From Spirochaetia bacterium (lineage in GTDB: Bacteria > Spirochaetota > Spirochaetia > SZUA-6 > Bin103): DNA of 64,000 nt. Shown here in pieces: positions 1,252 to 31,339 of the stretch. Position 1 is the first letter of the stretch. Each line of letters starts with the position of its first letter. The position numbers and the translations under genes were made by a program. The stretch lies in contig OZ251575.1 in the NCBI GenBank assembly GCA_965243555.1, positions 864,463 to 928,462 of the forward strand. The letters are read 5' to 3'. Under the pieces are notes generated by a model. It was given only the letters and a program-made list of their open reading frames with translations, had not been told where the DNA came from and did not search any database.

Positions 1252-1254
1252 CGG

Positions 1255-3926: not shown

Positions 3927-3930
3927 CGGC

Positions 3931-8540: not shown

Positions 8541-8551
8541 CCCAGCCCCTC

Positions 8552-9007: not shown

Positions 9008-9963
9008 TATTTGAAGGAGTAGGAGTCCACGCCAGATATGTGAAACATCGTGCGCCTCCGGGTTGCGGTCAGCTGACCGGTCCACTCCACCACGCGGACC
9101 AGAGCGCCCGGGAACCCGGCCAGCGTCGCGTCGATCCACTGGCCGGTAGAGATCCCCTCCGCCGACTCATAGCAATCGATCGCGTCCAGGTCCAGCCCCC
9201 ACAGGTTCCCCTCCAGCCCAGCCTCATCGATGAACTGGTCAGCCACAAAATCGACACCCATGAACCGGAACGACGTTAGACCAAGCTCGACAGTTTCCTT
9301 CGACTGCGGGATCTGAAAACGGCCACCTTTATCCACCCAGGTCGCCTCAACCTGGCTATGGTCCACGCTGCTCAGGAAAATATGCGTCGGCTTCTTGTTG
9401 TTGAACTTCGCCCTGTTTATGCAGAAACTCAGCCCGTCGGACGCACCGCTATACATCTTCAGGTGGGCGGTGTTGTATTCCTTCGCCCGGAACTTTTCTT
9501 CGTCTATGCCGCCGAACGCCGACGCGCTCACGATTTCCGAAAGAGAGTGCACCGGACGCCCCTGCAGATCACGCACGTAGATATCACGCCCGATTTTGGT
9601 AGCCTGATCGTCGCGCTGCTCCTCCACCTTACGTGAGACCAGCCTAATCACCGCCTGCTGACCGACATTTTCCACCTTCTCGTCTTTATCGATCATATGC
9701 GGCGTGTCATAATAGGCCCACTCCGTCTTCACGGAGGTCATCGTCCTCCGCCCGCCGAGCACGACCTCCGACCGTGGGTCGCGCGAGCGCGTCGTGCCGA
9801 GCTCCGTGATGTTGATTGGAAACTGCGCAGACGTCCCGCCCGGCTGCATCCGTTTGCGGCGCTGCAGGAGCGCCAACAGCGCGCACTGCCGATATACATT
9901 CTCGGTAAAGCGGCCGTAATATGGCTTGCTCACCGCGTTCGCTTGCTCGATAGTTATTGCCAT
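9007..9963 (-). CDS. Putative major capsid protein (318 aa).
   Basis: It sits immediately downstream of the scaffold-like gene in portal-scaffold-capsid order. Its size and composition fit an HK97-fold coat protein. I found no motif-level confirmation. Confidence 0.5.
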   Translation of the reverse strand: MAITIEQANAVSKPYYGRFTENVYRQCALLALLQRRKRMQPGGTSAQFPINITELGTTRSRDPRSEVVLGGRRTMTSVKTEWAYYDTPHMIDKDEKVENVGQQAVIRLVSRKVEEQRDDQATKIGRDIYVRDLQGRPVHSLSEIVSASAFGGIDEEKFRAKEYNTAHLKMYSGASDGLSFCINRAKFNNKKPTHIFLSSVDHSQVEATWVDKGGRFQIPQSKETVELGLTSFRFMGVDFVADQFIDEAGLEGNLWGLDLDAIDCYESAEGISTGQWIDATLAGFPGALVRVVEWTGQLTATRRRTMFHISGVDSYSFK

Positions 9964-9975
9964 TCAGATTCCTCC

Positions 9976-10896
9976 TTACAAGGCGGCAAGCTGCCGCTCG
10001 CGAATGTCCGCAAACGTGTCGCCCGGCCGCGAAATATCGTCGGAGACGGGCGAACCGCCCCCCCCCGCCGGCAGGAGCGTCGGGCTCCCACCCGGCCGAT
10101 CCGCGACGTTGGGGGAGCCCGCCGCCGCGCTCGACGCCTGCCCCTCGCCATACGCATGCAGCTTCGCCGCGAGTGTAATGACCTCACGCTCCAGGTCAGG
10201 CGCCTCAGCTATCGCACGTAGCGTAGACCGCAGCTCCTGCTCGTTCACGCCGTGCGGGAACGAGCGCTGATCGGCGAGCACCTCCGCAATCAGCCGGTTC
10301 TCCTTCTCGACCGCCTGCCGGGCGCGATAGTCCTCCAGCACCGGCGCAAACTCGCGCATCACCTCCTGCTTCATCGCCTCACGGGCCGCCTGGTCCCGTT
10401 CCGCCACCGCAGACCCAGACGGCGACTGGCCAAGGATCTGGTTGACGTACTGCGCCACGTCGGGCCGCTCCCGCAGCAGCCTGTCCAACTGCTCATACCG
10501 TCCCCGCGACCCAGCCCAGCTTTGCGTCTCCTGCTGATGCTGCCGGACCGCAGCCTCATGCGCGCGCCGCGACTCCTGGAGCCTGGTCATCTGCGACGAG
10601 TAGTCGGCCATCGTCAGCCGCTCGCGCCGGCCGGTCTCAGTCTCCCGGTCAAGGTGCTCCTTCAGCGCCGCAGCGTCCGCAAACGACTGCCCGCCGTAGG
10701 AAAACCACGGCTCGGCGCCCGCGCCACCACCGGCGCCCGCGCCACCACCGGCGCCCGCGCCACCACCGGCGCCCGCGCCACCACCGGCGCCCGCGCCACC
10801 ACCGGCGCCCGCGCCACCACCGGCGCCCGCGCCATCGCCGGCGCCCGCGCCATCACCGGCGCCCGCGCCGCCGGTGCTCTCAGCCCCATCCCACAC
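9976..10896 (-). CDS. Putative scaffolding protein with an N-terminal (GAGAGG)n repeat.
   Basis: 306-aa protein: a Gly-Ala repeat followed by a coiled-coil-like Glu/Arg/Gln-rich body. It lies between the portal and capsid genes. Confidence 0.5.
   Translation of the reverse strand: MWDGAESTGGAGAGDGAGAGDGAGAGGGAGAGGGAGAGGGAGAGGGAGAGGGAGAGGGAGAEPWFSYGGQSFADAAALKEHLDRETETGRRERLTMADYSSQMTRLQESRRAHEAAVRQHQQETQSWAGSRGRYEQLDRLLRERPDVAQYVNQILGQSPSGSAVAERDQAAREAMKQEVMREFAPVLEDYRARQAVEKENRLIAEVLADQRSFPHGVNEQELRSTLRAIAEAPDLEREVITLAAKLHAYGEGQASSAAAGSPNVADRPGGSPTLLPAGGGGSPVSDDISRPGDTFADIRERQLAAL
10714..10875. repeat. Tandem 18-bp repeat (GGCGCCCGCGCCACCACC, ~9 copies, the last two variant) inside the scaffold gene.
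   Basis: Read directly from the sequence. It encodes the GAGAGG repeat. Confidence 0.85.
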
Positions 10897-10907
10897 GTCG
10901 TACCTCC

Positions 10908-11204
10908 TCAGCCATCGAACCTGCGTAGCAGTCCGTCCAGACCGCCGCCCGCCGGCCCTGCGCCCGCGCTCGACCGGCCCGCCCGGCCAAGCGCTCGCTC
11001 AGCCACGGCCCCCGCTCCGGGGCGCAGGTTCGCGCCATTGGCAATGTTCGCCATTTTGTCCATCGGGCTCGCGTTACCCAACTGCGTCCGCGTGAACTTG
11101 TGCAGCTCCTCCAACAGCGGTCGGTTCACGTCGATGCCCATCGTCTCCAACATCCACTCCGCGACCGTCGTCGCCTCGGTCACAGTGGCGGCGGTGCGGC
11201 CCAT
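10908..11204 (-). CDS. Small hypothetical protein (~98 aa) between the portal and scaffold genes.
   Basis: The track ORF 10908..11372 overlaps the portal 3' end. I trimmed it to the internal Met at 11204. Weakly supported. Confidence 0.3.
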   Translation of the reverse strand: MGRTAATVTEATTVAEWMLETMGIDVNRPLLEELHKFTRTQLGNASPMDKMANIANGANLRPGAGAVAERALGRAGRSSAGAGPAGGGLDGLLRRFDG

Positions 11205-11283
11205 TAGCACCTGCCCATCCAATGGGTTGAGCAGGCTGCGATTCGACTCCACCACGTCCGCCGGCGGCGCAGCGGCCGCGGCG

Positions 11284-13131
11284 CTAGGCGGCTGGGAGCG
11301 CCGGTGGTTCGATGCCGGTTTCGGTCCCGAAGGTGGCAGCATCTTGGCCTCCTGGAAGTGCAGCAGCAGCACCCTGCGCCTGCACCAAGTTCATCTGCAT
11401 GCGTTGGATCGTTTCCCGCCAACCCGGCCAGTTCAGGTGCCGCAACGTATCCTCGGCGTCAATAATTCCCATCTGGGCGAGCCTTAGCGCAAGATTCGCC
11501 CTGCTCTGAAGGTCGGTAGGCAGGCTGGATTGGGACTGCACCAATATCTGGAACCGCATGGAAACGCGGTCGGCACCCACCGGCAGCGCCCGCATAAGCC
11601 GATCGAGCGCCGCATCACGAGCACGTTCCCGGTCGGTCTCACCATGCAGGCTCGGCTCCTCCTCACCCTCCTCCTCCTGCGCATCAAATTCCTCGTCAAC
11701 ATAGCGCGAGATAATGCGCCGCGCATCGTCGAGGCGATTGGAGATGGTGCCGTACGTCACCCCGCCGTCGCTATCCTCGTTGGAAAAATACCTGGACTCG
11801 CGGTAGAATTCCATCATCACAGACAAGATCCGATGGAGAACCCGCTTGACGGACAACTCCAGCATCCGCACCCGAAGACGGGTACGAGTGTGCCCAGCTT
11901 CATAAAGCCCAGAAAACTCTTGAGCGGTCTGCCGCTCCCGCTTTGCAGACTGACCACGAATTATATCCGTGACCGAAGTCAAATCCTCGAGAACCGTCTC
12001 AAGAAATTGGATGTACTGGAACTCGGCCTGCAGCGGTGGGCTCGTAGGTACGGGCTCAATGCCAGTGTACCGTAGGTCGTCGCCGCCTTGATTTTTCTTT
12101 ACCCAAAACTGGCCGCCGCGGTGGAAGTCAGACTTCACCTTTTCGGCGTCCACCACCGTCGAATCGATAACATAATTGTTCCTGCAGGTGTTCCGCACCT
12201 TGCCGGCGACGGACTGGAGCACCTCATTGAGCTCGTCGACCAACGGCATTAGGTGCCGGCCTTCTCCCACCCCCCAGATCTCGTGCGACAAGCGATAGTC
12301 GTAGACCAAAACGAACGGAGGCTTGCCATGCCCAAATGGGCTCGGGTAGTCCGCGAGCAAGACCGGCTTGCCCTCCCGCCCCGACCGCGTGAAGGTCACG
12401 AAGCGCCCGTTCGGGTATTTCAGCCGCCGCCTCTTCGGTGCCTCGTCACCATCCTCACCCTTCAGATCATCTTCAACGGTGTCGTCACGAAGCCACAACT
12501 CGTACACCGTCGCCCAGGCGTTGGTGGCCGAGAACGAATCCAGGCTACCCGAGCTACGATCCAAATCCCCGTCATCGTCGTCGGGATCCGGCACGATGTC
12601 CCCAGCCGCCGCCGGATAGCGCCGGCGCAGGTCACCGAGCGTGTGTTTACGCCGCTTGCACACCCAGGCGCATTCATCCAGGTCAGAGTGCCGCCCGCGC
12701 TGAAAAACCAAGTGCATCGGATTTACCACTCCGACTCGCACCTCTTCCTCAGTTTCGTCGTAGTCGATCTGGAGGCACCCCTGCTCCATCAGAAGAGCAT
12801 CCTGGTAGGCGGCCTGAAGCTTGCTACCCATGTCCAGCTCCTCCCAGAGAAACTCCAACGCCCTATTCCACTCCTCGACGATTGGCTGGACCGCCGGGTT
12901 ACGGGCCACCACCGACCAGATCGGCCTGCTGTCTGTCATTAGCGGCGCGAGCTGACTGACCGTAGCGAACAGCTTTCCACAATCGACACGCGAGAGGTGG
13001 TCAGGGGTATCTTCGCCCCACACCTCACCCTCGTACACCCGGCGGTAGCGCTTCCACCGCTCCCGGCGTGTACTATCCTCCTTGTATCGTGCCTCGATGG
13101 TATCCACTGCCCGCGCCAAGTTGATGTCCAC
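11284..13131 (-). CDS. Putative portal protein (615 aa).
   Basis: Large acidic protein. It is the first big gene of the structural operon, diverging from the terminase and lying upstream of the scaffold and capsid genes. The call rests on position and size. Confidence 0.5.
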   Translation of the reverse strand: MDINLARAVDTIEARYKEDSTRRERWKRYRRVYEGEVWGEDTPDHLSRVDCGKLFATVSQLAPLMTDSRPIWSVVARNPAVQPIVEEWNRALEFLWEELDMGSKLQAAYQDALLMEQGCLQIDYDETEEEVRVGVVNPMHLVFQRGRHSDLDECAWVCKRRKHTLGDLRRRYPAAAGDIVPDPDDDDGDLDRSSGSLDSFSATNAWATVYELWLRDDTVEDDLKGEDGDEAPKRRRLKYPNGRFVTFTRSGREGKPVLLADYPSPFGHGKPPFVLVYDYRLSHEIWGVGEGRHLMPLVDELNEVLQSVAGKVRNTCRNNYVIDSTVVDAEKVKSDFHRGGQFWVKKNQGGDDLRYTGIEPVPTSPPLQAEFQYIQFLETVLEDLTSVTDIIRGQSAKRERQTAQEFSGLYEAGHTRTRLRVRMLELSVKRVLHRILSVMMEFYRESRYFSNEDSDGGVTYGTISNRLDDARRIISRYVDEEFDAQEEEGEEEPSLHGETDRERARDAALDRLMRALPVGADRVSMRFQILVQSQSSLPTDLQSRANLALRLAQMGIIDAEDTLRHLNWPGWRETIQRMQMNLVQAQGAAAALPGGQDAATFGTETGIEPPALPAA

Positions 13132-13132
13132 C

Positions 13133-13402
13133 CTAGACCCTCGGCTCCCGCAGAATTAGCCCCTCGCGGTCAAGATAGGTGTCCCGCTCGCGCTGGTTAC
13201 CGAAGTACCGCCCCAGCCCCCCGTCGAAGCCGGCGCGGAAGCGCACCTTGTGGCGCACCGGCGAGAACACCCGCTCCGCCACCCCGCCACAGGAGCCGCA
13301 CTTCCGCCTCAGCAGCTCACCGTCCGTCATGGACACCACGACTTCAGCCACGACCCCACACCTCCCACAACGAAAGTCGTAGCGCACATCCCCATGATAC
13401 AA
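13133..13402 (-). CDS. FmdB-family zinc-ribbon protein (89 aa).
   Basis: Two CxxC pairs (CGRCG ... CGSCGG), typical of FmdB/zinc-ribbon regulatory proteins. Its stop is 2 nt before the portal start. Confidence 0.55.
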   Translation of the reverse strand: MYHGDVRYDFRCGRCGVVAEVVVSMTDGELLRRKCGSCGGVAERVFSPVRHKVRFRAGFDGGLGRYFGNQRERDTYLDREGLILREPRV

Positions 13403-13534
13403 GTGATACAGTCTTCGTCAAAAGCCCAAATAAAGGTACGTACACAGGAATGCCCTGCAGAGCCGCTCAGGCGATAGCGCGCCGCCGCGGCCGGCGGTGC
13501 GCCGTACGTACCAATCGAGGAGTTATCATAGGCC
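13403..13534. promoter_or_regulatory. Divergent intergenic region between the zinc-ribbon/portal operon (minus) and the terminase gene (plus).
   Basis: An AT-richer 132-bp stretch with a direct repeat TGATACA x2. GAGGAG lies 12 nt before the terminase ATG. Confidence 0.3.
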
Positions 13535-15289
13535 ATGCCGCCACAGACGACGTACCTACCGGGCTTGGAGCCAGCCAACAGCACATCGGACGCGGCTCCG
13601 CCCCTGGCCATCTTACGGCCGGGGCTGCTCAGCACAGAGCAGGTGCTCGCGAAGTACCGAGACCTTCGCGGGGGCGCCCAGAGCACACGCGAGACTAAGC
13701 GCCAGCTCGTCCGCTGGCGCGCGACGCACGATCTCTTTTGGTTCGGTGACACCTTCCTCGGCTTGGGCGAATTCGTCGACCCGGTCAACAAGCGGCAGCG
13801 CGTCGATCCGATCCTGCACGGCGACCTGTGCAAGCAGTTGGCCGCGCGTACCTCCATCCTGATCCTCCTCCCGCGCGACCACGGTAAGTCGACCTGGGTC
13901 ACCGTCACGGTCGCCCAAGACCTGTTGGCGAACCCCGACTACGTTCGCACGCTAATAATTTCCGCCAGCGTGACCCTGGCCCGAGCGAGGCTACGCTATT
14001 TGGCCGACCTGCTCACCAGGCCCGCAGTGTTGTACTACTTCGCCGATATCATTCCGGAGCCTGGACGCGGATTCACAAATTGGGACGTTAAAAACGCCTA
14101 CGACCTGACCGTGCGCAAGAGCCCGAACCGCCTCGAGGCGCAGCACCAGGTGATGGTCTGCGGGTACGAAGCGCTGATTACCGGCCACCATTTCGATCAC
14201 ATAATCTGTGATGACGTGGTCGACGAAAAAACCGCCCGGAGCGAAACGAAGCGGCAGCTCGCAGCGGAACGCTTGACAGGCCTCAACGCGCTCAAGGAGC
14301 CCACCGGACGCTTCACGGTGATCGGCACACGATACCATGAGGACGACGTGTATAGCCGCTTGCTCAACTCCACGCTCCTGGAAACACACGTGGTACGGCA
14401 AGCCACCGAGCGCCCCCCGGAGGTCGCTACGGAGCCGGTACCGGACGGTGTCACGGCCGGAGCCCTCGAAGACCCTTGGAGCGCACCGATCTACGCGTTC
14501 TATGACAAGGAAATGCTCAACCTGGCCAAGGAGGCGGCATACGACTTGACGGGCCGCCACGAGTGGTTCTACACGCAGTACTACAACCAAGCGCGCGCAC
14601 CCAGCGAGGCGGTGTTCCCCGACCCGCAGAAGCACACATACGAGGACATACCGGTCAACGTGCTCACGACGTGCGAAGTGTTTATAGCGCTCGACACGGC
14701 CAACACCCAAAACGTCACGTCCGACCTCAACGCCATCGCCGTCGGCTACCGCGAGCCACAAGGGACCGTGTTCATCGAGGACACCGAGGCGCTAAAGGGC
14801 ACCTGGGAGGACGCCGCACGAGCGCTCGTGGGAATGATGCTGAAGCATCCGCCAAGAGGAGTCGCAGTAGAAACGACCTTCGCCGACAACTGGCTGGCGA
14901 TGTTCCGCCGCGTGCTGTCCGACATACTGCGCGACCTCGACTATGACCCGCCGCGCCTCCCGACACCCGAAATAGTGTTGCCGCGGCGTGGGCAGAACAA
15001 GGAGGAACGCATCGACCTCCTATTCGGTTCCGCATTCAGGACCGGCACCGTAGTGGTGCAGCGCGATCAGACCGAGCTGCTCGCCCAGATGGCCAGCTTT
15101 CCGAAGGGGCGCCACGACGACCTCGTGGATGCCACGGCGACCGTCTGCGCCCTCGCCGAGCCGTCCCAGCGCTACGTAACGTACTACGAACGCCCGAAAC
15201 CGCCGCCTAACCGCTTCGAGATGTTCCTGCACCGCAATCGCAAGTCCGGCTACCGGTACGGCGAAAACCTAGCCGGCTACCTGGCTTGA
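13535..15289 (+). CDS. terL: Terminase large subunit (584 aa).
   Basis: Walker A-like LLPRDHGKST, a DExx motif (IICDDVVDE), and a C-terminal nuclease-like region, matching the standard TerL architecture. Confidence 0.7.
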   Translation: MPPQTTYLPGLEPANSTSDAAPPLAILRPGLLSTEQVLAKYRDLRGGAQSTRETKRQLVRWRATHDLFWFGDTFLGLGEFVDPVNKRQRVDPILHGDLCKQLAARTSILILLPRDHGKSTWVTVTVAQDLLANPDYVRTLIISASVTLARARLRYLADLLTRPAVLYYFADIIPEPGRGFTNWDVKNAYDLTVRKSPNRLEAQHQVMVCGYEALITGHHFDHIICDDVVDEKTARSETKRQLAAERLTGLNALKEPTGRFTVIGTRYHEDDVYSRLLNSTLLETHVVRQATERPPEVATEPVPDGVTAGALEDPWSAPIYAFYDKEMLNLAKEAAYDLTGRHEWFYTQYYNQARAPSEAVFPDPQKHTYEDIPVNVLTTCEVFIALDTANTQNVTSDLNAIAVGYREPQGTVFIEDTEALKGTWEDAARALVGMMLKHPPRGVAVETTFADNWLAMFRRVLSDILRDLDYDPPRLPTPEIVLPRRGQNKEERIDLLFGSAFRTGTVVVQRDQTELLAQMASFPKGRHDDLVDATATVCALAEPSQRYVTYYERPKPPPNRFEMFLHRNRKSGYRYGENLAGYLA

Positions 15290-15443
15290 CCGGAGGGCCG
15301 ACGCCCCCTTACCATCGTCGCAGCTTGCGGCTGGCGCAAGCGCAACAGGCGCTGTCGTTAGGCCGGTCGCGCCGCCCGCCGGGATTGAGCCCCCGGCGCG
15401 CGGCATCCAAAAAATTTGGGCGCGTATACTCGCGGATGCTCTC

Positions 15444-15460
15444 CTTACTGTGAAGACACC
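15444..15460 (+). repeat. 17-bp perfect direct repeat CTTACTGTGAAGACACC, copy 1, upstream of the recombinase gene.
   Basis: Exact match to 16896..16912, read directly from the sequence. A 17-mer coincidence is negligible at 64 kb. Confidence 0.8.
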
Positions 15461-15800
15461 CCTACCCCCCCTCCCCCCGGTCGAACCCCCCCGGCACCCG
15501 TAGACGGGCGCACGCTCACCTACTCCACGCGTCCGCGGGCAAGTTGCACACGGATTGCCCGCGCGGCCCGCCGCGCGCCGAGTGAACGAACAGCGGTGGC
15601 TATTCAGCTCCTGCCGGTGCGCGCTGGGGGGGCGCCCTCCGGGGCGACAGCTCGTAGCCGGACCGCACCCCCCGCGCACGGGCGGCCCGGCCCGGCGCGC
15701 TCCCATCCGCACGCCCCTGCATGGTGGCCCGGGCGCGCCGTCATAGCGCCGCGCCGGGTCGCTGCCGGGCGCAAAACCACCCGTTTCGCTTGACCTGTGT

Positions 15801-15830
15801 TATCGCCTATGATTACACTTATAGGCGATG
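15801..15830. promoter_or_regulatory. Inverted repeat TATCGCCTAT-N10-ATAGGCGATg overlapping the recombinase start codon and putative promoter (TTGACC at 15790).
   Basis: The arms match 9/10 bp. A -35-like TTGACC lies 5 bp upstream. Candidate operator or recombinase-binding site. Confidence 0.45.
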
Positions 15831-16817
15831 ATAGACATGCAGCCGGCGGGCCAGCCGCTCGCCGATACCCTGGGCACCGAGCTTGCCGCCAAGGACGTGC
15901 TGCGCATCGAGCAGGCCCTGGATGCAGCGCGCAGCAAGAACACCCGGCGCCAGTACAAGTCAGCTTGGGCGACCTTCGCTTCCTGGGCCAACCTCAACGG
16001 CCACAAGGCGTTGCCGGCGGAAGCGCAAGTCATCGCGGCCTACTTGACCGAGATGGAGAGCAACAGGAAGTCGGCCAGCACCATCGAAGGCGCGCGCGCA
16101 GCCATCGGCGCAGCCCACCGTGACGCAGGGCTCGTTGATCCTACGCAGCATGAAGGCGTCCGCCGGGTGTTGCGCGGCGTCAAGCGCCAAGCGCGCGGTC
16201 GCGGTCGCGGTCAGGCGCAGGGACTCACTGCCGAAGACATAGCGGCTATGCTCGCGACCGCCGACATCCCGCGCCAAACAGGACGCGGCATCGAGTCGAC
16301 CGATCAGGCATCGGCGCGCGGCGCCATCGACAAGGCGATCTGCGGCCTACTCTTCCACGGCGGCCTCCGCCGAAGCGAAGCGGCAGCCCTCACGTGGGGA
16401 GACGTGCTCATTAACGACACCGGCGTGCTGGTCACCGTTCGCACATCGAAGACGAACCAGAAAGGCGACCGCCACGACGTGCGCTTCCTCAAGAACGGGT
16501 GCGCCGCGGCCATGCGTAGCCTGCGCAACCGCCGCGAGTGCGACCTACAGGGCCAACCGGAGGCCGGGGACCTCGTCCTCGGCGGTCTCAACGGTGCCAG
16601 CATCGCAAGGCGCCTCGCCGCCGCCGCGCGCGCCGCGGGGATCGACGGCCGCATCACCGGCCACTCCGGGCGCGTCGGCCTCGCCACCGAGCTCACGCAG
16701 CGCGGCGCCAGCACGACCGAGACGATGCTCGCCGGCGGTTGGACCACGGCGCGGATGGTCGCGCACTACAGCGCGGGCGCGGTCGCCGAGAGGGGCGCGG
16801 TCGCAAAGTATCTCTGA
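15828..16817 (+). CDS. Cre-like tyrosine site-specific recombinase/integrase (329 aa).
   Basis: The C-terminus GHSGRVGLATEL...AGGWTTARMVAHY parallels Cre SGHSARVGAARDM...AGGWTNVNIVMNY (catalytic His, Arg, Trp, Tyr). The N-terminal domain parallels Cre (LPAEAQVIAAYL vs FPAEPEDVRDYL). An alternative start is the ATG at 15837. Confidence 0.8.
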   Translation: MIDMQPAGQPLADTLGTELAAKDVLRIEQALDAARSKNTRRQYKSAWATFASWANLNGHKALPAEAQVIAAYLTEMESNRKSASTIEGARAAIGAAHRDAGLVDPTQHEGVRRVLRGVKRQARGRGRGQAQGLTAEDIAAMLATADIPRQTGRGIESTDQASARGAIDKAICGLLFHGGLRRSEAAALTWGDVLINDTGVLVTVRTSKTNQKGDRHDVRFLKNGCAAAMRSLRNRRECDLQGQPEAGDLVLGGLNGASIARRLAAAARAAGIDGRITGHSGRVGLATELTQRGASTTETMLAGGWTTARMVAHYSAGAVAERGAVAKYL

Positions 16818-16895
16818 ACGAGCGGCGATGGCCATTCAGTCGGCGGCTCCGAGCGCCGCGCGTCCCCCGAAACCTGCCCCGCGCCGGCCGCGCCT

Positions 16896-16912
16896 CTTAC
16901 TGTGAAGACACC
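16896..16912 (+). repeat. 17-bp perfect direct repeat CTTACTGTGAAGACACC, copy 2, 79 bp downstream of the recombinase stop.
   Basis: Exact match to 15444..15460. Confidence 0.8.
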
Positions 16913-16955
16913 TTCCGCGCAAACTCGCAAGTTCTTATTGCGTATACCGTAAGCA

Positions 16956-17426
16956 TTGCATAGCTACGCCGAATCGCAGGCCAAGGAACAGGCCCGGCAC
17001 CTCTGGAAACACCTCGTCGCAATGTTGCGCGCGCACACGCCCACGCACGTAGTCGCCACGCACCTTGAGATCGGCCGGAACAAGATCGAGCAGGTCCAGT
17101 GCGGGTCACTCCGCGCCTACTGGCTCGGCTCCTGGCTGCTGGGCATCCCACCGAGCGAACTATGCCGCGGCGGATGGTACGCACCACGCGGCGTCGACCA
17201 CACACCACCCCCAACGAACGTTGAAACCGCTGCGCTGTGGGAGAGCGCAACCGCGAAGCGGAAAGCACAGATCAGAGCCCAACACCCCGTTCGACTCCGA
17301 CTGACCTACACGCACCGCACCACCCGCCCAAGCTTGATCCGCGTGTGCCGCGTCGGCCCGGCTCTCTGGGGCACCGTCGCCGCCGCCTTTCAAGCCCTCG
17401 AACACGAGCGCCGACAACAACATTGA
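16956..17426 (+). CDS. Hypothetical protein (156 aa).
   Basis: Plus-strand ORF of plausible composition downstream of the recombinase. No recognisable domain. Confidence 0.3.
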   Translation: MHSYAESQAKEQARHLWKHLVAMLRAHTPTHVVATHLEIGRNKIEQVQCGSLRAYWLGSWLLGIPPSELCRGGWYAPRGVDHTPPPTNVETAALWESATAKRKAQIRAQHPVRLRLTYTHRTTRPSLIRVCRVGPALWGTVAAAFQALEHERRQQH

Positions 17427-17660: not shown

Positions 17661-18464
17661 TCAGCCGGCAGCGAGCACCGCTACGAGGTTGGAGCGCTGC
17701 AGCAGGTCGGCGTCGGCGGAGCGCTCCAGGAAAGGACGGACGTCGCCGATGAGCTGACCGACGTCAAGCCCCGCGAGTTGTGCGCGAAGGATCGACCGCC
17801 ACTCCCGCGCCCGGTAGCGGCCGACGCCTTCGGTCTGATCCAGGGCGCTCTGCAGCAACGGCAGATTCGGCTCCACCGGCGGGCGCCGCGTTCGGTACCA
17901 CACCAGATCGTACCAATCCCGGCCCTTCCGGTAGCGGCGGGTCAGGAGCGCGTGCAACTTCCCGGCCATCAGCGACGGCAGATCGTAGTGCGCCACCACG
18001 AAGGTCACGCCGCGTGTTACGATCGTGCGTTCGATGTGCGCCCCGGCGGGCGGGCGGGTGTCGATCTCGATCTTGATGGCGAGTTTCTGTTGCGGATGAC
18101 CGGACAGCCCTGTCTCGGCGAGCAGCGAGGAGGTCCGTACCCACGCTACCTGTACGGTCCGGCGGTCATTCCAGCGAACGGTACTGTCGAAACCGGCGAA
18201 GTGGAGGTCGCGCTTCAGCTTCTCCAACCAGACGCGCGGGTGGTATTCCGCCGCCGAGGTGCGACAGAAGTCGAGGTCCTCGGAGAAGCGCGGCAGATCC
18301 TCCAGCAGCCGGAGCGCGGTACCGCCCACAAACGCCACCGACCGTGACGCTTCGCTCTCGTGCAACGACCTCAGGGTGAAAACCTGGAGGTACTCGCGTA
18401 GCGCGTTGAGGCGTTGCGTGGGGTCGGTGTAGCGCTCGGCGGCGGCGAGCGCCTGCTCCTTCAC
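17661..18464 (-). CDS. abiEii: AbiEii/AbiGii-family nucleotidyltransferase toxin (type IV TA), ~267 aa.
   Basis: Family-typical motifs: FVGGTALRL, LPRFSEDLDF, and the C-terminal DWYDLVW. The GTG start at 18464 overlaps the TGA of abiEi (GTGA). Confidence 0.75.
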   Translation of the reverse strand: MKEQALAAAERYTDPTQRLNALREYLQVFTLRSLHESEASRSVAFVGGTALRLLEDLPRFSEDLDFCRTSAAEYHPRVWLEKLKRDLHFAGFDSTVRWNDRRTVQVAWVRTSSLLAETGLSGHPQQKLAIKIEIDTRPPAGAHIERTIVTRGVTFVVAHYDLPSLMAGKLHALLTRRYRKGRDWYDLVWYRTRRPPVEPNLPLLQSALDQTEGVGRYRAREWRSILRAQLAGLDVGQLIGDVRPFLERSADADLLQRSNLVAVLAAG

Positions 18465-19102
18465 AGTTCCTCGCCTTCGTCGTCGTGCAGGGAGCGGCAC
18501 TCCTGCCACACCCGCACGGCATGCCGAATCCGCGGCTTGCCCATACGCCGCGCAAGGGCGGCGAGGCGGCCAAGGTCGAACAGTTCGGTCTGCTGGAATC
18601 GCATCTCCGCCATCCGGTCGACATCCCACGCGCCGGGCGTCAGGTGGAACAGGTCAAGCAGCGCCTTCTCCACCGTGGCGACGATTGCGTCGCTGCCCGC
18701 GACCCGGACGGTGCGGTACCCGAAGAAGAACTCCCGCTTCACGTTGCGGTAGCTGAACGTGCCGAGCCGGTTCGCGAATTCGCGCGGGGTGCGCGTGGTG
18801 ACGCTGGTGTAGACCGGCACGCTTTCGGGAATCACGCCGTAGAAGCTCAGCGCCCACGCGCCGCTCAGGTAGGACGGGGCGTACAACGCGTTGGCCAGCG
18901 CGGCCGGCGCCAGCGGCGCGCGCCGGTAGCGGTCGGCCAGCGTGTAGCGGCCGCGGCGCAGGGCGACCACCTTGCCGGCCCGGCCCCAGCGGTGGAGCTG
19001 GCTCACCACGCTCGCCCGCGGCGCCGCGCTGAGCTGGGTCACCGTCGCCAAGTCGAACCACGGCTCCGCGCCGAGCAGCTCCACGACCGTGTCAAATCTC
19101 AT
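18461..19102 (-). CDS. abiEi: AbiEi-family antitoxin / transcriptional regulator (213 aa).
   Basis: The N-terminal wHTH-like region and C-terminal domain fit AbiEi (COG5340-like). It is immediately upstream of, and overlapping, the AbiEii toxin gene. Confidence 0.7.
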   Translation of the reverse strand: MRFDTVVELLGAEPWFDLATVTQLSAAPRASVVSQLHRWGRAGKVVALRRGRYTLADRYRRAPLAPAALANALYAPSYLSGAWALSFYGVIPESVPVYTSVTTRTPREFANRLGTFSYRNVKREFFFGYRTVRVAGSDAIVATVEKALLDLFHLTPGAWDVDRMAEMRFQQTELFDLGRLAALARRMGKPRIRHAVRVWQECRSLHDDEGEEL

Positions 19103-19208: not shown

Positions 19209-20756
19209 TCAGCCGGCGGCCACCTCGAAGGCGGTCACGTTGCGAGTCGCGCGGCTGAACTCCACCCCGAGCAGGTGGATCGGCTCGCGCCCGTCCCGGT
19301 ACTTGGCGGCGTAGTCGCGCTCCCGCAACTGCGCCAGCGCGGTCCCCTCCCCCGCCTGCTCCGTTACCTTGAACTCGAACAGGTACACCTGCCCGCCGGC
19401 CCGCACCGCCATGTCCAGCCGCCCGACCGCGCTCGAATCCTCCACCACAATGTCATAGCCCAGCGCCGCGAAGTAGGAGTAGAACACGCTCGCGTAGTAG
19501 CCCTCGTAGCGGGCGATGTCGTTGTTGGAGTGCCACTCATACGGGATGCTCGCAAAGAAGGCGTGGAACAGCTCCCGCAGCCCGGCGCAGTCGGCCGCTT
19601 CCAGCAGGCGCGCCAGGCGGAAGCTGTTGGCCATCTGCCGGTCTCCGTCCCGCACCAGATGGCGCAACAGCACGTCGTTCAGGCTCTGCCGCACCTCCCG
19701 GTTCGGGTAGCCCAGCCGGTACACTGCCCTCCCGCCCAGCTCATCTTCCGCCTTGATCGTCAGGTAGCCGGTCTGGAACAGCAGCGCCTGGGTGCCTATG
19801 TGCTCCACGTCGAACGCCGACAGCAGCTCCTCGGTACCGACCATGTCGGCCAGCGACACGGTGGAGACTCGCCGCTCAAACAGCGTGTCGATCAGGAACG
19901 CCGGCGAGCCGGTCTCGAACCAGTGGGGCTTGAACTTGCGGCTGTCGAACAGCAGCAGCAGGTCAAACGGGTTGTACACCTTCTCGTCGCCCAGCCAGCA
20001 GTACCCGTTGTACCACTCGCGGATGCGATCGCGGTCCAGCCCCGGCAGCTCCGGGGCGAATACGGTGTCCAGGTCTTCTTCGGTGTAGCCGCAGATCGCC
20101 GAGTAGCGCGGGTCCAGCGTGAGGTCGGTGAGGTTGTTGAGGTCGGAGAACAGACTCATCTTGGAGAACTTGCTCACCCCGGTCAGGAAGGTAAAGCGCA
20201 CGTGCGCTTCACTGTCCTTGATCACCCCGTACAGACCGCGCAGGAAGGCGCGGTTGGCGCGGGCTACCTCGGGGGTTTCCAGCGCGTCCAGGATCGGCTT
20301 GTCGTACTCGTCCACCAGCACCGCCGCCTGCTGCCCGGTACGCTCGTGCAGGGCTTCCAGCAGGGATGCGAAACGGCCCGGCGCCGTCAGGTAGTCCGCC
20401 TCCACCCCGTTGCGCCGCTCCACGGCCGCGAGCTGCTCCATGACGTTGTCCCGCAACAGTCCCGGCTCCCTGAAACTGCCGCCGCCGAAGCTGAGCCGCA
20501 CCACGGGATGGCGCTGCGACCAGTCATGGCGTCCGTGGACGTGGAGCCCCTCGAACAATGCCTTGCTGCCCTCGAACAGCTCCTTGAGCGTGTCCAGAAA
20601 CAGACTCTTGCCGAACCGCCGCGGCCGCGACAGAAAGTAGTGCGTGCCCCCGTCGAGCAGACGTTCGACGTAGGGCGTCTTGTCCACGTAGTAACAATTC
20701 CGCTTGCGGAGCGTGCGGAAGGTCTGGATGCCGGTGGGCAGCCTGCGCCGGACCAT
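19209..20756 (-). CDS. Paralog A1: AAA-ATPase-like N-terminal domain plus C-terminal PD-(D/E)XK nuclease-like domain (~515 aa).
   Basis: N-terminus MVRRRLPTGIQTFRTLRKRNCYYVDKT..YFLSRPRRFGKS (the predicted-ATPase family signature). The C-terminus has D...FEFK (PD-(D/E)XK). I trimmed the track ORF to the Met homologous to the A2/A3 start. Confidence 0.7.
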   Translation of the reverse strand: MVRRRLPTGIQTFRTLRKRNCYYVDKTPYVERLLDGGTHYFLSRPRRFGKSLFLDTLKELFEGSKALFEGLHVHGRHDWSQRHPVVRLSFGGGSFREPGLLRDNVMEQLAAVERRNGVEADYLTAPGRFASLLEALHERTGQQAAVLVDEYDKPILDALETPEVARANRAFLRGLYGVIKDSEAHVRFTFLTGVSKFSKMSLFSDLNNLTDLTLDPRYSAICGYTEEDLDTVFAPELPGLDRDRIREWYNGYCWLGDEKVYNPFDLLLLFDSRKFKPHWFETGSPAFLIDTLFERRVSTVSLADMVGTEELLSAFDVEHIGTQALLFQTGYLTIKAEDELGGRAVYRLGYPNREVRQSLNDVLLRHLVRDGDRQMANSFRLARLLEAADCAGLRELFHAFFASIPYEWHSNNDIARYEGYYASVFYSYFAALGYDIVVEDSSAVGRLDMAVRAGGQVYLFEFKVTEQAGEGTALAQLRERDYAAKYRDGREPIHLLGVEFSRATRNVTAFEVAAG

Positions 20757-20769
20757 TCGTTCTCTTACC

Positions 20770-22662
20770 TCACACCCACGCCAGCAGCTCAAAGACGGTG
20801 TTGGCAAGCAACGTTTCGCCGTTGCCCACCAGGTAGACGATGTCCTTATCCGTATTAACCGTAGTGCCCGACCATTCCCGTTGTAACACTATCTTGACCC
20901 TGCGAACGGTGGCATCGTTCGTGGCCGACACCAGGTAGACGTTTGCGCCCAACCCGGTAACCCTTTGGTTCCACAGGACAGACGCCGCGAATCCCGTCCA
21001 CGGCAGAACCACTTCGGAGACTACCGCCGCACCGATCTTGACGCGAAACACGAGACCCAACCACGAATTCGGCAGCCGCCGCGGAACGTTCATCTCGCTT
21101 ACCCCACGCGCCGGTGACACCAGGTCGAATCCTGCGGGCGCCGTCCCCTCGATGACCCAGTTGACCGGCGGAAGCGTAGACGCGGAGTACAAGCCGGCGG
21201 CGGGCGACAGCGTCGCTATCAGCGCGCCGACGTGATTCGGCGTCCACGCCGCCGGCGTCTCGGTGCCGTCCGCAGCGACTTTGACCCACGAAAGCGTGCC
21301 GGCGGTCTCGTCCAGGCTCTTGACGTGCTGCTCGCGCGCCTCCGCCTGCAGCCGCGCCTTGCTCATGGTGCGGTAGCCGTACAACGACGCCTCAGGGTAT
21401 GCCGTAACCGCCTTCGACGCCGTAAACGCGGCCACGTAAAACCCGACGTCGCCCAAGTACAGAATCCCAGCAGCAGGGTCGTATGCCGCCCCCGTCAACC
21501 CGCGAAAGCCGGACCGGCCTGCCGTTACCTGCGAACCGGTGAGGGTAAGCCCCGGAACTTCTTTACCGGTGGCTACGTTGTAGGCGTACACCGCGTCTCC
21601 GCTGCCCCCGTAGATCAGCACGTCCCCTACGAACGTCGCAGCGCCGACCCCCTCCGTTCCCGGCAGCTTCACGTGCTTGGTAGCCGTGCCGCTCTTGAAC
21701 ACGCGCGCAAGACCGAACCCGTCAATCACCCACAGATCGTTGTCGTGCCATGCCATACACCACACGCTTCCCAACCTGCCAACGGCCAACTTGGAAACTT
21801 TGATCTCGTCCCCGGCCACCTCCTCGGGCCTTTGCTCAGCCGTTCCGGGGTGCGACAACCTGAACACCTTGATCGGCTTACGGTACCCGTCCGCCGTAAT
21901 CGCGAGCTTTTTGCTGGTGTGGTTGTAGGACAGTCCATGGACCGGAGCAACACCAGTCCCGGTGATGTCCGCGCCGGGAAACCTGCGACCGTTCTTGAAC
22001 GCGAAGACTCTGCCCGAACGAGTACTGCCAACGAGGACCACGCCATTCTCAACGACTTCCAAGGCGCCTGGCTTGATCCTGCCCAACTCAGTCGCATCAA
22101 TGTCCTTGCTGCTATCTCGGTTCCACCCCGTTACCGCGCCATGCGTGAGCCGAAAATTGATCCTCACGTATGCCGGGGCCTCAGTGCTCAGCACAGCAGG
22201 ATCGCCGCCAAGCGCCTCCGCGGTGACGATCGCCAGGGTATCGGTGGTCCCCGTGTCCTTGATCACCTTCTCAATGCTCTTCCTATCCGTCACCGCCGCC
22301 TCCGCAGTGGCGCCCATCTGCAAGATAAGCGCATCGACCGTGCCGGCGGCGAACAGGTTGGCCAGCGTCCGAGAGGCGTCATGCGGCAAAGTCGTCACCT
22401 TGAACTTGCCGGCGTCCCGGTTGCCGCTCGTACCCACGCGCACGTAGGAAAACTGCGCAGTCACCGCCCCGTCCGCGCTAATCGGGAACGTGCCCTGATA
22501 GGTCCGCGTCCGGGCGTTGTGCTCCAGCCGCACTACGTGAGGATCGGACTTCTGAATCGCCTCCAGACGCCACTCTTTGACCGGATCAAGCGCCCGTTGC
22601 GCGAACTTGTCGGCTGCGGCCAATTCACGGCCGGCTTGCGGCCGGGGATTGGTAACCGCCAC
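20770..22662 (-). CDS. Paralog B1: large protein (630 aa) with a beta-propeller-repeat body related to the phage tail protein, plus the conserved B-family C-terminal domain.
   Basis: GTG start per the track. The body shares repeats and the motif LSWVKVAADGTETPAAWTP with the 3931..7593 tail protein (NVLSWQDKAADGTTTPRQWTP). The C-terminal ~110 aa are homologous to B2 and B3. The 5' end sits out of frame behind a leader module. Confidence 0.55.
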   Translation of the reverse strand: MAVTNPRPQAGRELAAADKFAQRALDPVKEWRLEAIQKSDPHVVRLEHNARTRTYQGTFPISADGAVTAQFSYVRVGTSGNRDAGKFKVTTLPHDASRTLANLFAAGTVDALILQMGATAEAAVTDRKSIEKVIKDTGTTDTLAIVTAEALGGDPAVLSTEAPAYVRINFRLTHGAVTGWNRDSSKDIDATELGRIKPGALEVVENGVVLVGSTRSGRVFAFKNGRRFPGADITGTGVAPVHGLSYNHTSKKLAITADGYRKPIKVFRLSHPGTAEQRPEEVAGDEIKVSKLAVGRLGSVWCMAWHDNDLWVIDGFGLARVFKSGTATKHVKLPGTEGVGAATFVGDVLIYGGSGDAVYAYNVATGKEVPGLTLTGSQVTAGRSGFRGLTGAAYDPAAGILYLGDVGFYVAAFTASKAVTAYPEASLYGYRTMSKARLQAEAREQHVKSLDETAGTLSWVKVAADGTETPAAWTPNHVGALIATLSPAAGLYSASTLPPVNWVIEGTAPAGFDLVSPARGVSEMNVPRRLPNSWLGLVFRVKIGAAVVSEVVLPWTGFAASVLWNQRVTGLGANVYLVSATNDATVRRVKIVLQREWSGTTVNTDKDIVYLVGNGETLLANTVFELLAWV

Positions 22663-22820
22663 ACCTTCGGCTCGCCCGTAATCGCTACCGCCTGCGTCTC
22701 CTTCCCGCTCGAAATGATGACGTTCGTAGCCGCAAGCAGTGCCTCATTATGCCGCAGTGCAGCCTCGAACTCGGAGGGCTGTGGGTTCGATTGCCGTCTC
22801 GGCCCCGTAGGTCGCAGCAT
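22533..22820 (-). pseudogene. Leader-module ORF (MLRPTGPRRQSNPQPSEFEAALRHNE...) that runs out of frame into the B1 body.
   Basis: AGGAGG-N8-ATG leader near-identical to the B2 5' end. The reading frame is offset by 1 nt from the B1 frame. This may be a recombination junction, a frameshifted gene, or a site of programmed frameshifting. Confidence 0.35.
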
Positions 22821-22824
22821 CAGC
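22778..22824. repeat. Conserved leader-module core (type I) upstream of B1.
   Basis: About 47 bp (CGATTGCCGTCTCGGCCCCGTAGGTCGCAGCATCAGCTCCACCTCCT) near-identical to 24606..24652. It contains the RBS and start of the leader peptide. Confidence 0.7.
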
Positions 22825-23107
22825 TCCACCTCCTTGCATCTTTGCATCTTTGCGCAGCCGCGCCGTAGCGTGCCAGTTCAGACCCATTCGTATACCTCAA
22901 TGGTTGCTTGGGCCGGAATCTCATTGCCATTACCACGCACGTCAAGCTTGTGTCCGCGCGGTCCGGGTCGGCATCCGGTACCTTCGGCGTGCCCGGAATC
23001 GCTACCGCTACCGACTCCTTCCCGCTCGGAATGGTGACGTTCGCCGCCGCCGTAAGCAGTTGCTCGTCGTACCGTAGCGCCTGCTCGAACTCAGCCCGCC
23101 CTACCAC
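22820..23107 (-). pseudogene. Truncated B3-type 5' gene fragment (VGRAEFEQALRYDEQLL...DPDR, then divergent).
   Basis: It matches the B3 N-terminal ~50 aa and diverges after DPDR. It is preceded by a type II leader carrying ACG in place of the ATG. Confidence 0.4.
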
Positions 23108-23177
23108 TTGGCACTCGCCTCAATCTGCCCCCGCACCGGCGGCTGCGCTATCGGCCGCCGGTGGCGGGGCCGGGGGT

Positions 23178-23224
23178 TGATGGCCGTTTCGGCCCGTAGG
23201 GTCGCAACGTCAGGTCCACCTCCT
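23178..23224. repeat. Conserved leader-module core (type II, with start codon mutated to ACG) upstream of the truncated B fragment.
   Basis: Near-identical to 29628..29677. Confidence 0.7.
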
Positions 23225-24638
23225 ATACCCATGCGCGCAATTCGAAAGTGGTATTGGTCTTGATAGGCGTGTTGTTGCCAATTACAAATAGCGCATCCTT
23301 GCGTGGACGGATGTACTCTCGCTGCAGCGCCAACTTGATGTTGCGCCTCGTCCTGTCATCGGTCGCATTGATGATGTAAACTGATGTACCCAAATGGTCT
23401 TCGACTTCGCTTTGCCAGGCTGATCCTGTCCGGAAAGGCAACCACGGGACGTACACCCTCTCTATTACCTTCACCCCGACCTTCACCACGACGACCAACC
23501 CCAACCAGGATTCCGGAAGCACCCTGGGAACGTTCATCGAACCGAAGACATGCGGCGGGCCGACCCGGTCGAAGCCCGTCGGAATGCCGCTTGAAAACAC
23601 CCAGTCGGCTCCGGGGCGCGCGCTAGCCCCTGGCGTTCCCGCCGGCCACTCTAGTGTTGCTACCAAGGCCCCCACGTGAGTCCTCGGGGCCGCGTCCGTG
23701 GGTGAAAGGGATACGCCAAGGTCCGCGGTGATGCGGAACGTGCGAGACTCCGCTGCTCCCTGGTAGGTCCAGTAGTAGCCGGTGGTGTTGTTGGCGTTGC
23801 GGCCAAGGTAGAAGTGAACTTCGCCGAGCTTGACGTTCGACCGGTACACGCCTACGCCGCCGCCGATCTCCAGCCCCTCCACGGGGTCGCCAACTTCCCA
23901 ACTCGCCACCGCCGCAAGCTCCGAGAGAAAGACAATCTCGGTGATGTCGTGCGTCCTATTATTGTCGGTGGTGAAGCCAATATCGTCGGTCCTGCCGCCG
24001 CCGGTGATCGTCAGGGTCAGCGACACGTACAGCTCTCCGCGGTTGTAGTCGTCCAGGTCCAATGGCGTGCTGAACGGAATCAGCGCGGCACCACTAACTT
24101 GGTTGTCGGAGCTGTCATTCACGTCAAGGGCAGCGATGGTGGCGCGATCTTCCAGCACGGTGAGGCGCGGAACAGGGGGCAGCTTTACCGCCGCGATCTT
24201 CGACGCGTTCGAACGGCGCGCCCACGGTTCAAGGTCAATCGAAGACACCGTGATCGCTACCGAGTAGGTGCCCGCCCGATCCGCGGAGAACAGGAACTGC
24301 GAATCGGTCGACCGCGCCAGCATGCAGAGCGTGCTGCCCATCGAATGCACGACGGCGTTCTTTGAATTCAGCTCCGCGCCGCGCGTAACTACCGGCTTCG
24401 CCAGCAAGGCCGACAGGTCGAACCGCACGGCGCTGACGCCCACCTTCCATATCACCTCACGGTCCGGGTCGGCATCCGGCACCTTCGGACTGTCCGTGAT
24501 CAATGCCGCCTGCGTCTCCGACCCGTTTTGAATGGTCACGCTCTTCGCCGCAGGCCATGGCTCGTTATGCCGTAGCGCCGCCTCGAACTTGGAGGGCTGT
24601 GAGTTCGATTGCCGTCTCGGCCCCGTAGGTCGCAACAT
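23223..24638 (-). CDS. Paralog B2 (~471 aa): fused leader, B-type body, and conserved C-terminal domain.
   Basis: AGGAGG lies 8 nt before the ATG at 24638. The N-terminus is MLRPTGPRRQSNSQPSKFEAALRHNE. The body is homologous to B3. The C-terminus is homologous to B1 and B3 (NVPRVLPESWLGLVV...FELRAWV). Confidence 0.55.
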   Translation of the reverse strand: MLRPTGPRRQSNSQPSKFEAALRHNEPWPAAKSVTIQNGSETQAALITDSPKVPDADPDREVIWKVGVSAVRFDLSALLAKPVVTRGAELNSKNAVVHSMGSTLCMLARSTDSQFLFSADRAGTYSVAITVSSIDLEPWARRSNASKIAAVKLPPVPRLTVLEDRATIAALDVNDSSDNQVSGAALIPFSTPLDLDDYNRGELYVSLTLTITGGGRTDDIGFTTDNNRTHDITEIVFLSELAAVASWEVGDPVEGLEIGGGVGVYRSNVKLGEVHFYLGRNANNTTGYYWTYQGAAESRTFRITADLGVSLSPTDAAPRTHVGALVATLEWPAGTPGASARPGADWVFSSGIPTGFDRVGPPHVFGSMNVPRVLPESWLGLVVVVKVGVKVIERVYVPWLPFRTGSAWQSEVEDHLGTSVYIINATDDRTRRNIKLALQREYIRPRKDALFVIGNNTPIKTNTTFELRAWV

Positions 24639-24652
24639 CAGGTCCACCTCCT
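24606..24652. repeat. Conserved leader-module core (type I) at the B2 5' end.
   Basis: Matches 22778..22824. Confidence 0.7.
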
Positions 24653-24717
24653 TACATCTCTCTGTGCCGATAGTAGCTCACCTCGCCGTCCACCGCCACC
24701 GTGCCACCCACCGCAAT

Positions 24718-26583: not shown

Positions 26584-26663
26584 CGTCAGTCTCCTCTCGG
26601 AACGGTCGCCAGTGCCCTGGGTATAACCCAGCGAGCGAGCGAATCTCCTGCGCGGCTCTGGTC

Positions 26664-28076: not shown

Positions 28077-28107
28077 CGTCAGTCTCCTCTCCGCACTAAC
28101 GGGGTTG

Positions 28108-31315: not shown

Positions 31316-31339
31316 CAGCCCATCACACCATCGAACAGG

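Follow-up and report, generated by a model that had tools for sequence, protein, structure and literature searches.

A 17-nt sequence, CTTACTGTGAAGACACC, stands as a direct repeat on either side of a Cre-like tyrosine recombinase gene in a 64-kb stretch of the genome of a Spirochaetia bacterium (GenBank assembly GCA_965243555.1, contig OZ251575.1, positions 864,463 to 928,462; hereafter the window, with its first letter as position 1). By comparing this region with related metagenomic contigs we found that the two 17-mers and the order of the genes around them are conserved in an uncultured phage lineage, that the recombinases lying between them in different members of this lineage are non-homologous, that the bracketed segment has a history separate from that of its surroundings, and that palindromes which might serve as recombination sites recur across the family of the Cre-like enzyme. 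The 17-mers are probably not the crossover sites of the Cre-like enzyme itself. Our tentative preference, based on the conservation pattern, is that the 17-mer could be a protein- or RNA-recognition signal in gene expression which has been strictly conserved in the phage lineage.

In the mechanism we propose, the 17-mers would be conserved, asymmetric, cis-acting boundary signals of a podovirus-like (pro)phage lineage, with the first copy placed after the terminase operon in an element of about 90 nt, the second placed before a lineage-specific gene without known homologs (an ORFan), and the slot between them always holding a tyrosine recombinase module. This module would be exchangeable, being of the Cre type with its own promoter and a 28-34-bp lox-like palindrome in the window, and of the XerD type with a different promoter in two relatives. 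The 17-mer itself may be bound by a phage or host factor, as an operator or roadblock, as an activator site, or as a TACTGT-containing -10-type promoter core with transcription starting near its 3' end, and it would head or insulate successive small transcription units. Owing to its invariance, it would also mark the ends of module replacements and small insertions. The Cre-like enzyme, for its part, would act on the palindrome at 15802-15829 in cyclisation, multimer resolution or integration, and probably in autoregulation.

The 17-mer pair in the window and in related phages

A first-pass annotation of the window had claimed that the 17-mer occurs exactly twice, in direct orientation around the recombinase gene, and an exact-match search bore this out, with copy 1 at 15444-15460 and copy 2 at 16896-16912, both on the + strand. 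Its spacings are likewise correct: copy 1 starts 384 nt before the ATG at 15828, the copies are 1452 nt apart, and copy 2 starts 79 nt past the last base of the stop codon (16817). One convincing gene, running from 15828 (or 15837) to 16817, lies between them. The repeat extends weakly leftward (28 nt at 82%), and the 17-mer has a GC content of 47% in a window of 68% GC. About 10 exact 17-mer repeats are present in the window outside its paralog regions, and 266 of 400 windows simulated with a first-order Markov model hold at least one, nearly all of them with at least 80% GC. An exact pair with at most 55% GC arose in 4 of the 400 simulations and one that additionally lay within 3 kb in none of them; because of this the pair is taken as real and not expected by chance.

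Further copies had been suggested as a sign of a generic repeat. We found none elsewhere in the window, whether at up to 3 or at 4-5 mismatches, and none in a collection of viral contigs, and the 12 matching loci in a genome-representative collection are fewer than expected by chance and contain neither the recombinase nor the ORFan. Four of these 12 belong to a single repeat family at contig ends of the Acidobacteriota metagenome-assembled genome SMAG_U10362 (L005, L009, L011, L012), in which the 17-mer stands 8 nt from the end of four contigs within a repeat family of about 200 nt with hairpins like those of repetitive extragenic palindromes. No recombinase or ORFan lies nearby, and we treat them as a chance match amplified by the repeat.

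The backbone gene nearest to the bracket on its left encodes the terminase large subunit (13535..15289, + strand; PHROG 38, E 1e-59). It has 13 relatives, the best at 65% identity; the protein is 65% identical to those of L016 and L020/L103, and the gene has 68% nucleotide identity to L103 and L104. The gene for the portal protein (11284..13131, - strand; Pfam SU10_portal, P22_portal) is divergent from it, and this portal(-)/terminase(+) layout is shared by L016-L020, L103 and L104. The more distant L017-L019 have the same layout without a recombinase after the terminase, and the genes that follow the terminase in them were not found in the window. The lineage as delimited here (window 1-17426, L016-L020, L103, L104) is without a cultured relative: the terminase is at most 27% identical to that of any deposited phage, the closest being Lentibacter and Celeribacter podoviruses, the recombinase has no match in cultured phages, and no relatives came to light among viral contigs when the terminase, the recombinase and an ORFan alignment served as queries.

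Comparison of non-coding DNA by BLAST aligned window positions 15410-15495, namely copy 1 and some 35 nt to its left and right, to the end of contig L020 at 78% identity. The perfect 17-mer occurs once in L020, downstream of the homologous terminase gene, and the contig stops 56 nt later. Two further metagenomic contigs, L103 (8562 nt) and L104 (7177 nt), were found via a 245-aa gene that follows the terminase in L020; this gene lies to the left of copy 1 in the relatives and is absent from the window. Each of these contigs contains the exact 17-mer twice in direct orientation, at 5512 and 7434 in L103 and at 5423 and 7025 in L104. Copy 1 is identical at the equivalent position in L020, L103 and L104, and the conserved non-coding element around it (15410..15495, + strand; about 90 nt, with the layout GG.CGCG.ATA.TCG...TGCTCTC, the 17-mer, CC and a C-rich tract) is 78-84% identical to L103 5478-5562 and L104 5389-5470, as against about 68% in the adjoining terminase gene. 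A 26-nt core at copy 1, TGCTCTCCTTACTGTGAAGACACCCC, is invariant in the relatives. At copy 2 the window shares with L103/L104 only the 17-mer and up to 3 nt more, without conservation of the flanks. The 17-mer is 17/17 identical at all seven sites despite a backbone nucleotide identity of only about 68% between the window and L103/L104, and this complete identity at every site therefore points to selection.

In the window, L103 and L104 copy 2 is followed by a homologous ORFan (16956..17426, + strand; 46% identical to L103 7492-8025, E 3e-37, with coding-like GC content at third codon positions), before which it stands by 34-43 nt in L103 (7434) and L104 (7025). This ORFan falls into only 2 representative clusters among 1.84 billion proteins, and since so rare a gene is homologous after copy 2 in all three genomes, the bracket lies inside the phage backbone. 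The presence of a conserved phage gene after copy 2 contradicts the proposal that the repeats set off a phage on their left from some other element on their right. Similarly, a reading of the repeats as attL/attR-type cores, with copy 1 as a hybrid junction, is contradicted by the conservation of about 35 nt on each side of copy 1 in the relatives. The same flanked arrangement recurs in the relatives with no polymorphism at the junctions, an outcome which the first-pass annotation had itself named as counting against its proposal.

The recombinase inside the bracket is a different one in the relatives. L103 and L104 hold a 314-aa tyrosine recombinase whose best solved structure is XerD (8e-16), with no match to Cre (as determined for L103), and whose promoter is TTGCAA/TTGAAA-N18-TATTAT; its similarity to the window recombinase is not significant (pairwise BLASTP of the L103 enzyme, E 0.32). 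Thus, Cre-type (window) and Xer-type (L103, L104) enzymes replace one another in one slot. Between L103 and L104 the backbone is 69-73% identical and the integrase block 92.8% identical (L103 5991-7078). This block ends just before a degenerate third copy of the 17-mer (CTTAaCTGTGAAG, L103 7081-7093), and the sequence preceding the third copy is duplicated in front of copy 2 over about 54 nt in L103 and about 17-20 nt in L104, the duplicates surrounding a small diverged gene. A small zinc-finger-like open reading frame is present in L103 and not in L104. In both replacement events the right breakpoint falls on the left edge of a 17-mer. The left breakpoint of the Cre/Xer exchange is not at copy 1: as the C-rich tract on the right of that copy is shared, it must lie inside the bracket, at least 35-50 nt further on. 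Copy 2 and the degenerate copy of L103 are located 34-49 nt upstream of gene starts and are co-oriented with the genes. Judged by these comparisons, the bracketed segment appears to behave as an exchangeable module with its own evolutionary history.

The 17-mer is asymmetric and includes TACTGT, a -10 hexamer of the TANNNT type. Neither copy forms a significant hairpin (z -1.7 and +0.2), nothing resembling an attC site or a terminator was seen at them, and Rfam gave no matches. The C-rich tract (15461-15495) right after copy 1 and a G-run (15622-15632) about 170 nt downstream are both also found in L103 and L104; a consensus fold, built from three sequences only, pairs the two tracts, which could be part of a structured leader, a small RNA or a Rho-utilisation region. 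A motif, GCGTATAC, occurs 16 nt before copy 1 (15421-15428) and 28 nt after copy 2 (16941-16948), and the 12-mer TTGCGTATACCG is also present at window 6157-6168. Repeats that include GTATAC (CTGTATACC) are clustered in the manner of iterons in L019, a related phage locus (15975-16050).

The Cre-like recombinase and its candidate site

The recombinase gene (15828..16817, + strand) encodes 329 aa from the ATG at 15828, or 326 aa from the ATG at 15837, where the public protein record begins. The product has two domains, matching Pfam Phage_integrase (56 bits) and SAM_1 (24 bits). It had been described as Cre-like or integron-like, and only the first part of this description stands. Among solved structures Cre is the sole significant match (phmmer, E 4e-16; XerD 0.31), the alignment falling into an N-terminal stretch (34-136/199) and a C-terminal stretch (248-328) in which the GHSGRVG, GGW and HY motifs align. 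The residues R179, K205, H276, R279, W302 and Y311 are invariant or nearly so in 44 family members, and the catalytic spacing is Cre-like, with HxxR followed by 23 residues to W and 9 to Y; the catalytic residues of Cre are R173, K201, H289, R292, W315 and Y324 (PMC10250229). An integron integrase was rejected, as TIGR02249 scores 18 bits against a cut-off of 265 and no attC-type hairpin is present at the 17-mers. The enzyme belongs to a family of 1331 homologues, with the best non-self member at 69% identity. Among the carriers of its members are a small circular element (L013), a contig that resembles a plasmid and has ParA (L014), chromosomes (L015) and numerous metagenomic contigs; two contigs of about 1.4 kb that carry family members (L021, L022) were considered as circles and rejected for want of terminal overlap.

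Directly at the start of the gene lies a candidate lox/dif-like site, ATCGCCTATGA-TTACAC-TTATAGGCGAT (15802..15829, + strand), in which the arms are complementary at 10 of 11 positions around a 6-bp spacer; written as one sequence the candidate palindromic site of the Cre-like enzyme is GTTATCGCCTATGATTACACTTATAGGCGATGAT, and it may alternatively be read as a 13-8-13 site at 15800-15833. It is AT-rich, unique in the window and not expected by chance (0.00 expected), with a DNA hairpin z-score of -2.8. The palindrome overlaps both the start codon of the recombinase gene and its sigma-70-like promoter, TTGACC-N18-TACACT (15790..15819, + strand), detected in a scan for the consensus. The same succession of -35 element, palindrome and -10 element is found in family members, with the homologous position and architecture in L022, L024, L026, L032 and L039. 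The sites of relatives have diverged arms around a TTRCAN centre, as in L022 (AACCATAA-TTACAG-TTATGGGTG), L024, L026 and L032/L040, and perfect 11-bp palindromes with 6-8-bp spacers, for example AATAAGCGATA-N8-TATCGCTTATT and ATGTCCGATAA-N7-TTATCGGACAT, lie upstream of the gene in L031, L036, L039 and L042. Enzymes of the Cre type are reported to have palindromic targets no more than 1 kb from the gene (PMC10250229), and the palindrome at 15802-15829 is the putative substrate of the Cre-like enzyme.

The 17-mers show no such association with this enzyme. They accompany the phage backbone in all three relatives that reach the region and occur in none of about 85 Cre-like family loci (431 kb), where only two chance-level matches with 4 mismatches were seen; in about 20 family loci with adequate flanks there is no flanking direct repeat longer than 13 nt. 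The suggestion that the 17-mers are crossover, core or lox-type sites of the recombinase is therefore disfavoured by their distribution. The further suggestion of a minimal self-mobilising cassette does not fit either, because the family has its own candidate palindrome, the 17-mers are linked to the backbone and the content of the bracket is exchangeable, the same bracket holding an unrelated XerD-like gene in the relatives. An empty site was not seen, L103 and L104 being both doubly flanked and occupied, in a small sample that includes no close strains of the source genome.

Two other observations bear on lox-like sites. In L014 (5680-7320, with ParA nearby), a 65%-identical Cre-like gene (6001-7020) lies between two inverted repeats, each about 305 bp long. 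The left one has its inner boundary precisely at the midpoint (TACAG|TTAT) of the lox-like site that overlaps the promoter, and the right one begins at 7015, within the last two codons of the gene; the left boundary looks like a crossover footprint at the lox-like site and could reflect inversion or recombination. In the window, a 14/17 match to one arm and the centre of the lox-like site stands in inverted orientation at the terminase start codon (13520-13536), with about 0.3 such matches expected by chance. Neither degenerate 17-mers nor hybrid half-lox sites were found at the borders of the island.

Competing explanations of the repeats

The preferred reading, a recognition signal in gene expression, would account for an asymmetric sequence that is invariant in diverged genomes and co-oriented with the genes that follow it. 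Several points weigh against it. The regulatory role would be a conclusion from comparison, and the bracket is known from three independent genomes only (window, L103, L104). There are only two 17-mers per 8-17 kb of phage DNA (two or three copies visible), and an operator acting genome-wide in the manner of a stoperator would be expected to recur more often. A scan for consensus sigma-70 promoters placed them directly upstream of the recombinases only and none at the 17-mers, and folds of the 70-79 nt upstream of the seven 17-mer sites are no better than those of shuffled sequences (z -1.6 to +1.5). Between copy 2 and the likely -10 element of the ORFan there are 30 nt in the window and 19 nt in L103/L104. 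Finally, the left flank of copy 1 forms an imperfect dyad with the 17-mer (GTGCTCTC-CTTACTGT-GAAGACAC), which would suit the core site of a recombinase. Neither Pfam nor PHROGs nor PDB lent support to the ORFan as a candidate helix-turn-helix regulator.

Because of these weaknesses, the dyad included, a role in site-specific recombination through some other enzyme stays live, though we consider it unlikely. The 17-mers would then be att-type sites, each comprising the overlap region and one binding arm, and the recombinase module an excisable and re-insertable cassette. Catalysis would fall either to the resident recombinases, adapted to a common core, or to a third enzyme, for instance the Xer of the host or some other protein of the phage, and the product would be a circle of 1.45-1.9 kb carrying the recombinase, with the predicted junctions GCCGCGCCT-CTTACTGTGAAGACACC-CCTACCCC in the circle and GATGCTCTC-CTTACTGTGAAGACACC-TTCCGCGC at the deletion. 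Such a role would agree with the tight placement of direct repeats around a recombinase in three genomes, with the separate evolutionary history of the bracket content, with the right breakpoints of both replacements at the left edge of a 17-mer and with the dyad at copy 1; moreover, the degenerate third copy and the duplicated left flank around a small gene in L103 and L104 are reminiscent of a tandem cassette array. However, one core would have to serve dissimilar enzymes of the Cre and XerD types, and the Cre-like family has a different, palindromic candidate site. The left Cre/Xer breakpoint also lies well within the bracket (at least 35-50 nt in), beyond a shared C-rich tract, copy 2 is without a conserved second arm, and no attC-like hairpin is present. 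No empty site was seen, and the roughly 20 other family loci with adequate flanks are free of flanking repeats.

Somewhat less probable still, in our estimate, is that the 17-mers are mere linker homologies at which homologous recombination, general or phage-encoded, swaps modules, with rare mini-circles as possible by-products. Such linkers would be akin to lambdoid boundary sequences and to the promoter early stem-loop elements (PeSLs) of T4-type phages, and the clustering of module replacements, insertions and deletions at the 17-mers agrees with this. So does the varying length of the duplicated sequence (17 nt in the window, about 17-20 nt in L104 and about 54 nt in L103), which fits a homologous crossover better than a site-specific one. 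Against it, 17 nt is short for efficient homologous exchange, and linkage alone gives no account of why the 17-mer is invariant in genomes diverged by about 30% while the flanks of copy 2 vary. Shuffling and mini-circle formation mediated by PeSLs are documented (PMC2839356, PMC4122927), yet of the parts that define these elements neither a strong sigma-70 promoter nor a significant stem-loop was found here.

A more speculative and rather improbable proposal is that the 17-mers, possibly together with the ORFan, constitute an undescribed cassette system in which whole recombinase or integration modules, of the Cre or the Xer type, are exchanged precisely at a common core; with similarly slight likelihood, such a system would be a natural form of recombinase-mediated cassette exchange that is independent of the recombinase carried.

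Very unlikely is a function in packaging, the 17-mers being genome-end signals at which the terminase acts and which bound a direct terminal repeat. The location immediately downstream of the terminase gene, the presence of two identical, co-oriented sites 1.4-1.9 kb apart and a match of the terminase to a T7-type nuclease domain, albeit below the curated cut-off, could be cited for it. Nevertheless, in L103 and L104 the bracket encloses a degenerate third copy, the bracket varies in length and content, and no contig ends at either site, L020 ending 56 nt beyond copy 1. That the repeat is a meaningless coincidence, as the frequency of exact 17-mers in a GC-rich window might suggest, has a negligible chance of being right and is refuted for practical purposes by the absence of close low-GC pairs from all 400 simulations and the recurrence of the pair in two independent, diverged genomes (L103, L104).

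Genomic setting and comparison with known systems

Phage structural genes, among them those for the major head protein and the portal, lie on the - strand left of the bracket. In one of them (9976-10896, - strand), an 18-nt unit (CGGCGCCCGCGCCACCAC) is repeated perfectly in tandem about 6.5 times at 10713-10830. To the right, the ORFan is followed by an AbiEii/AbiEi toxin-antitoxin pair and by paralogous AAA-ATPase/PDDEXK_9 genes, with host genes (rpsA) from about 34.6 kb. The ORFan has no match in Pfam, PHROGs or PDB; two motifs, CRVGPxLWG and ALEHERR, are conserved in it, and its structure as modelled from the single sequence was unusable (predicted local distance difference test score, pLDDT, 42). 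The AbiEii toxin gene stands directly to the right of the ORFan, and the overlapping upstream gene in the AbiEi position is without a Pfam match (17661-19102). The three paralogous AAA-ATPase_like/PDDEXK_9 genes are at 19209-20807, 29768-31315 and 31340-32884, with other recently duplicated genes between them, among which exact repeats as long as 100 nt recur at a spacing of 1496 nt (about 26.0-28.0 kb); the GC content at third codon positions in this paralog region (19209-32884) is lower than in the host genes to its right. As claimed previously, the window contains no tRNA gene. Early genes of the phage are not within the 64 kb.

With respect to the enzyme, the closest known systems are Cre/loxP of P1 and the mined pairs such as Dre/rox and Vika/vox (PMC10250229). 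They have in common with it a two-domain recombinase, the R-K-H-R-W-Y residue set with Cre-like spacing, a palindrome of the 11-6-11 or 13-8-13 form within tens of bases of the gene, and a phage as carrier. The differences are that the similarity to Cre is distant (E 4e-16, in two stretches), that the arms are imperfect (10/11), that the site overlaps the promoter and start codon of the gene, and that the element is chromosomal and not a plasmid prophage. In P1, cre lies near packaging genes, as does the recombinase gene here. By these features, the enzyme and its palindrome would appear to be a new member of the Cre-type recombinase/target class. Across the family, which has over 1300 homologues, the palindromes are promoter-proximal, differ from member to member and are in several cases perfect, and the family is thus a source of candidate new recombinase/target pairs for genome engineering.

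With respect to the bracket, attL/attR cores and the CTX/RS1/TLC elements, which form tandem arrays at dif, likewise have short direct repeats around a tyrosine recombinase, and the degenerate third copy is array-like. In contrast to attL/attR, copy 1 has conserved backbone of the lineage on either side, copy 2 is followed by a conserved gene of this backbone, and the same repeats surround unrelated recombinases; furthermore, the comparison turned up no empty site, and neither a dif-like nor a full dyad architecture is present. By the features tested, the bracket falls outside the integron and classical attL/attR classes. The stoperators of cluster A mycobacteriophages such as L5, 13-bp sites present in about 20-30 copies per genome and recognized by a cognate repressor, resemble the 17-mers as asymmetric, perfectly conserved intergenic sites that are co-oriented with transcription and common to related phages, and the integration cassette of these phages is a swappable slot (integrase vs parABS). 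The lineage described here differs in that two copies are visible and no regulator has been identified.

In the way it works, the bracket would seem to come closest to conserved motifs between genes where phages shuffle their modules. The best-documented of these, the PeSLs of T4-type phages (PMC2839356, PMC4122927), are also short direct intergenic motifs that flank variable genes, they too stand at boundaries of insertion, deletion and replacement between related phages, and gene-carrying mini-circles are possible in principle in both. PeSLs are about 50-70 nt long, combine a strong sigma-70 promoter with a stem-loop and number about 50 per genome (PMC2839356, PMC4122927). Here, in contrast, there is an invariant core of 17 nt, with no consensus promoter and no significant hairpin, in two or three copies placed around a recombinase. 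Module exchange at conserved phage boundary motifs is of a known kind, and what is new is its occurrence around a recombinase slot. It provides a clean natural example of a fixed phage slot in which an enzyme of integration or resolution has given way to a member of another tyrosine-recombinase subfamily. Should the 17-mer be the site of a regulator, it would define a new regulatory element in a lineage of uncultured phages; should it instead be a site of recombination, phages would be seen to exchange integrases, and the integration specificity that goes with these, in a new way.

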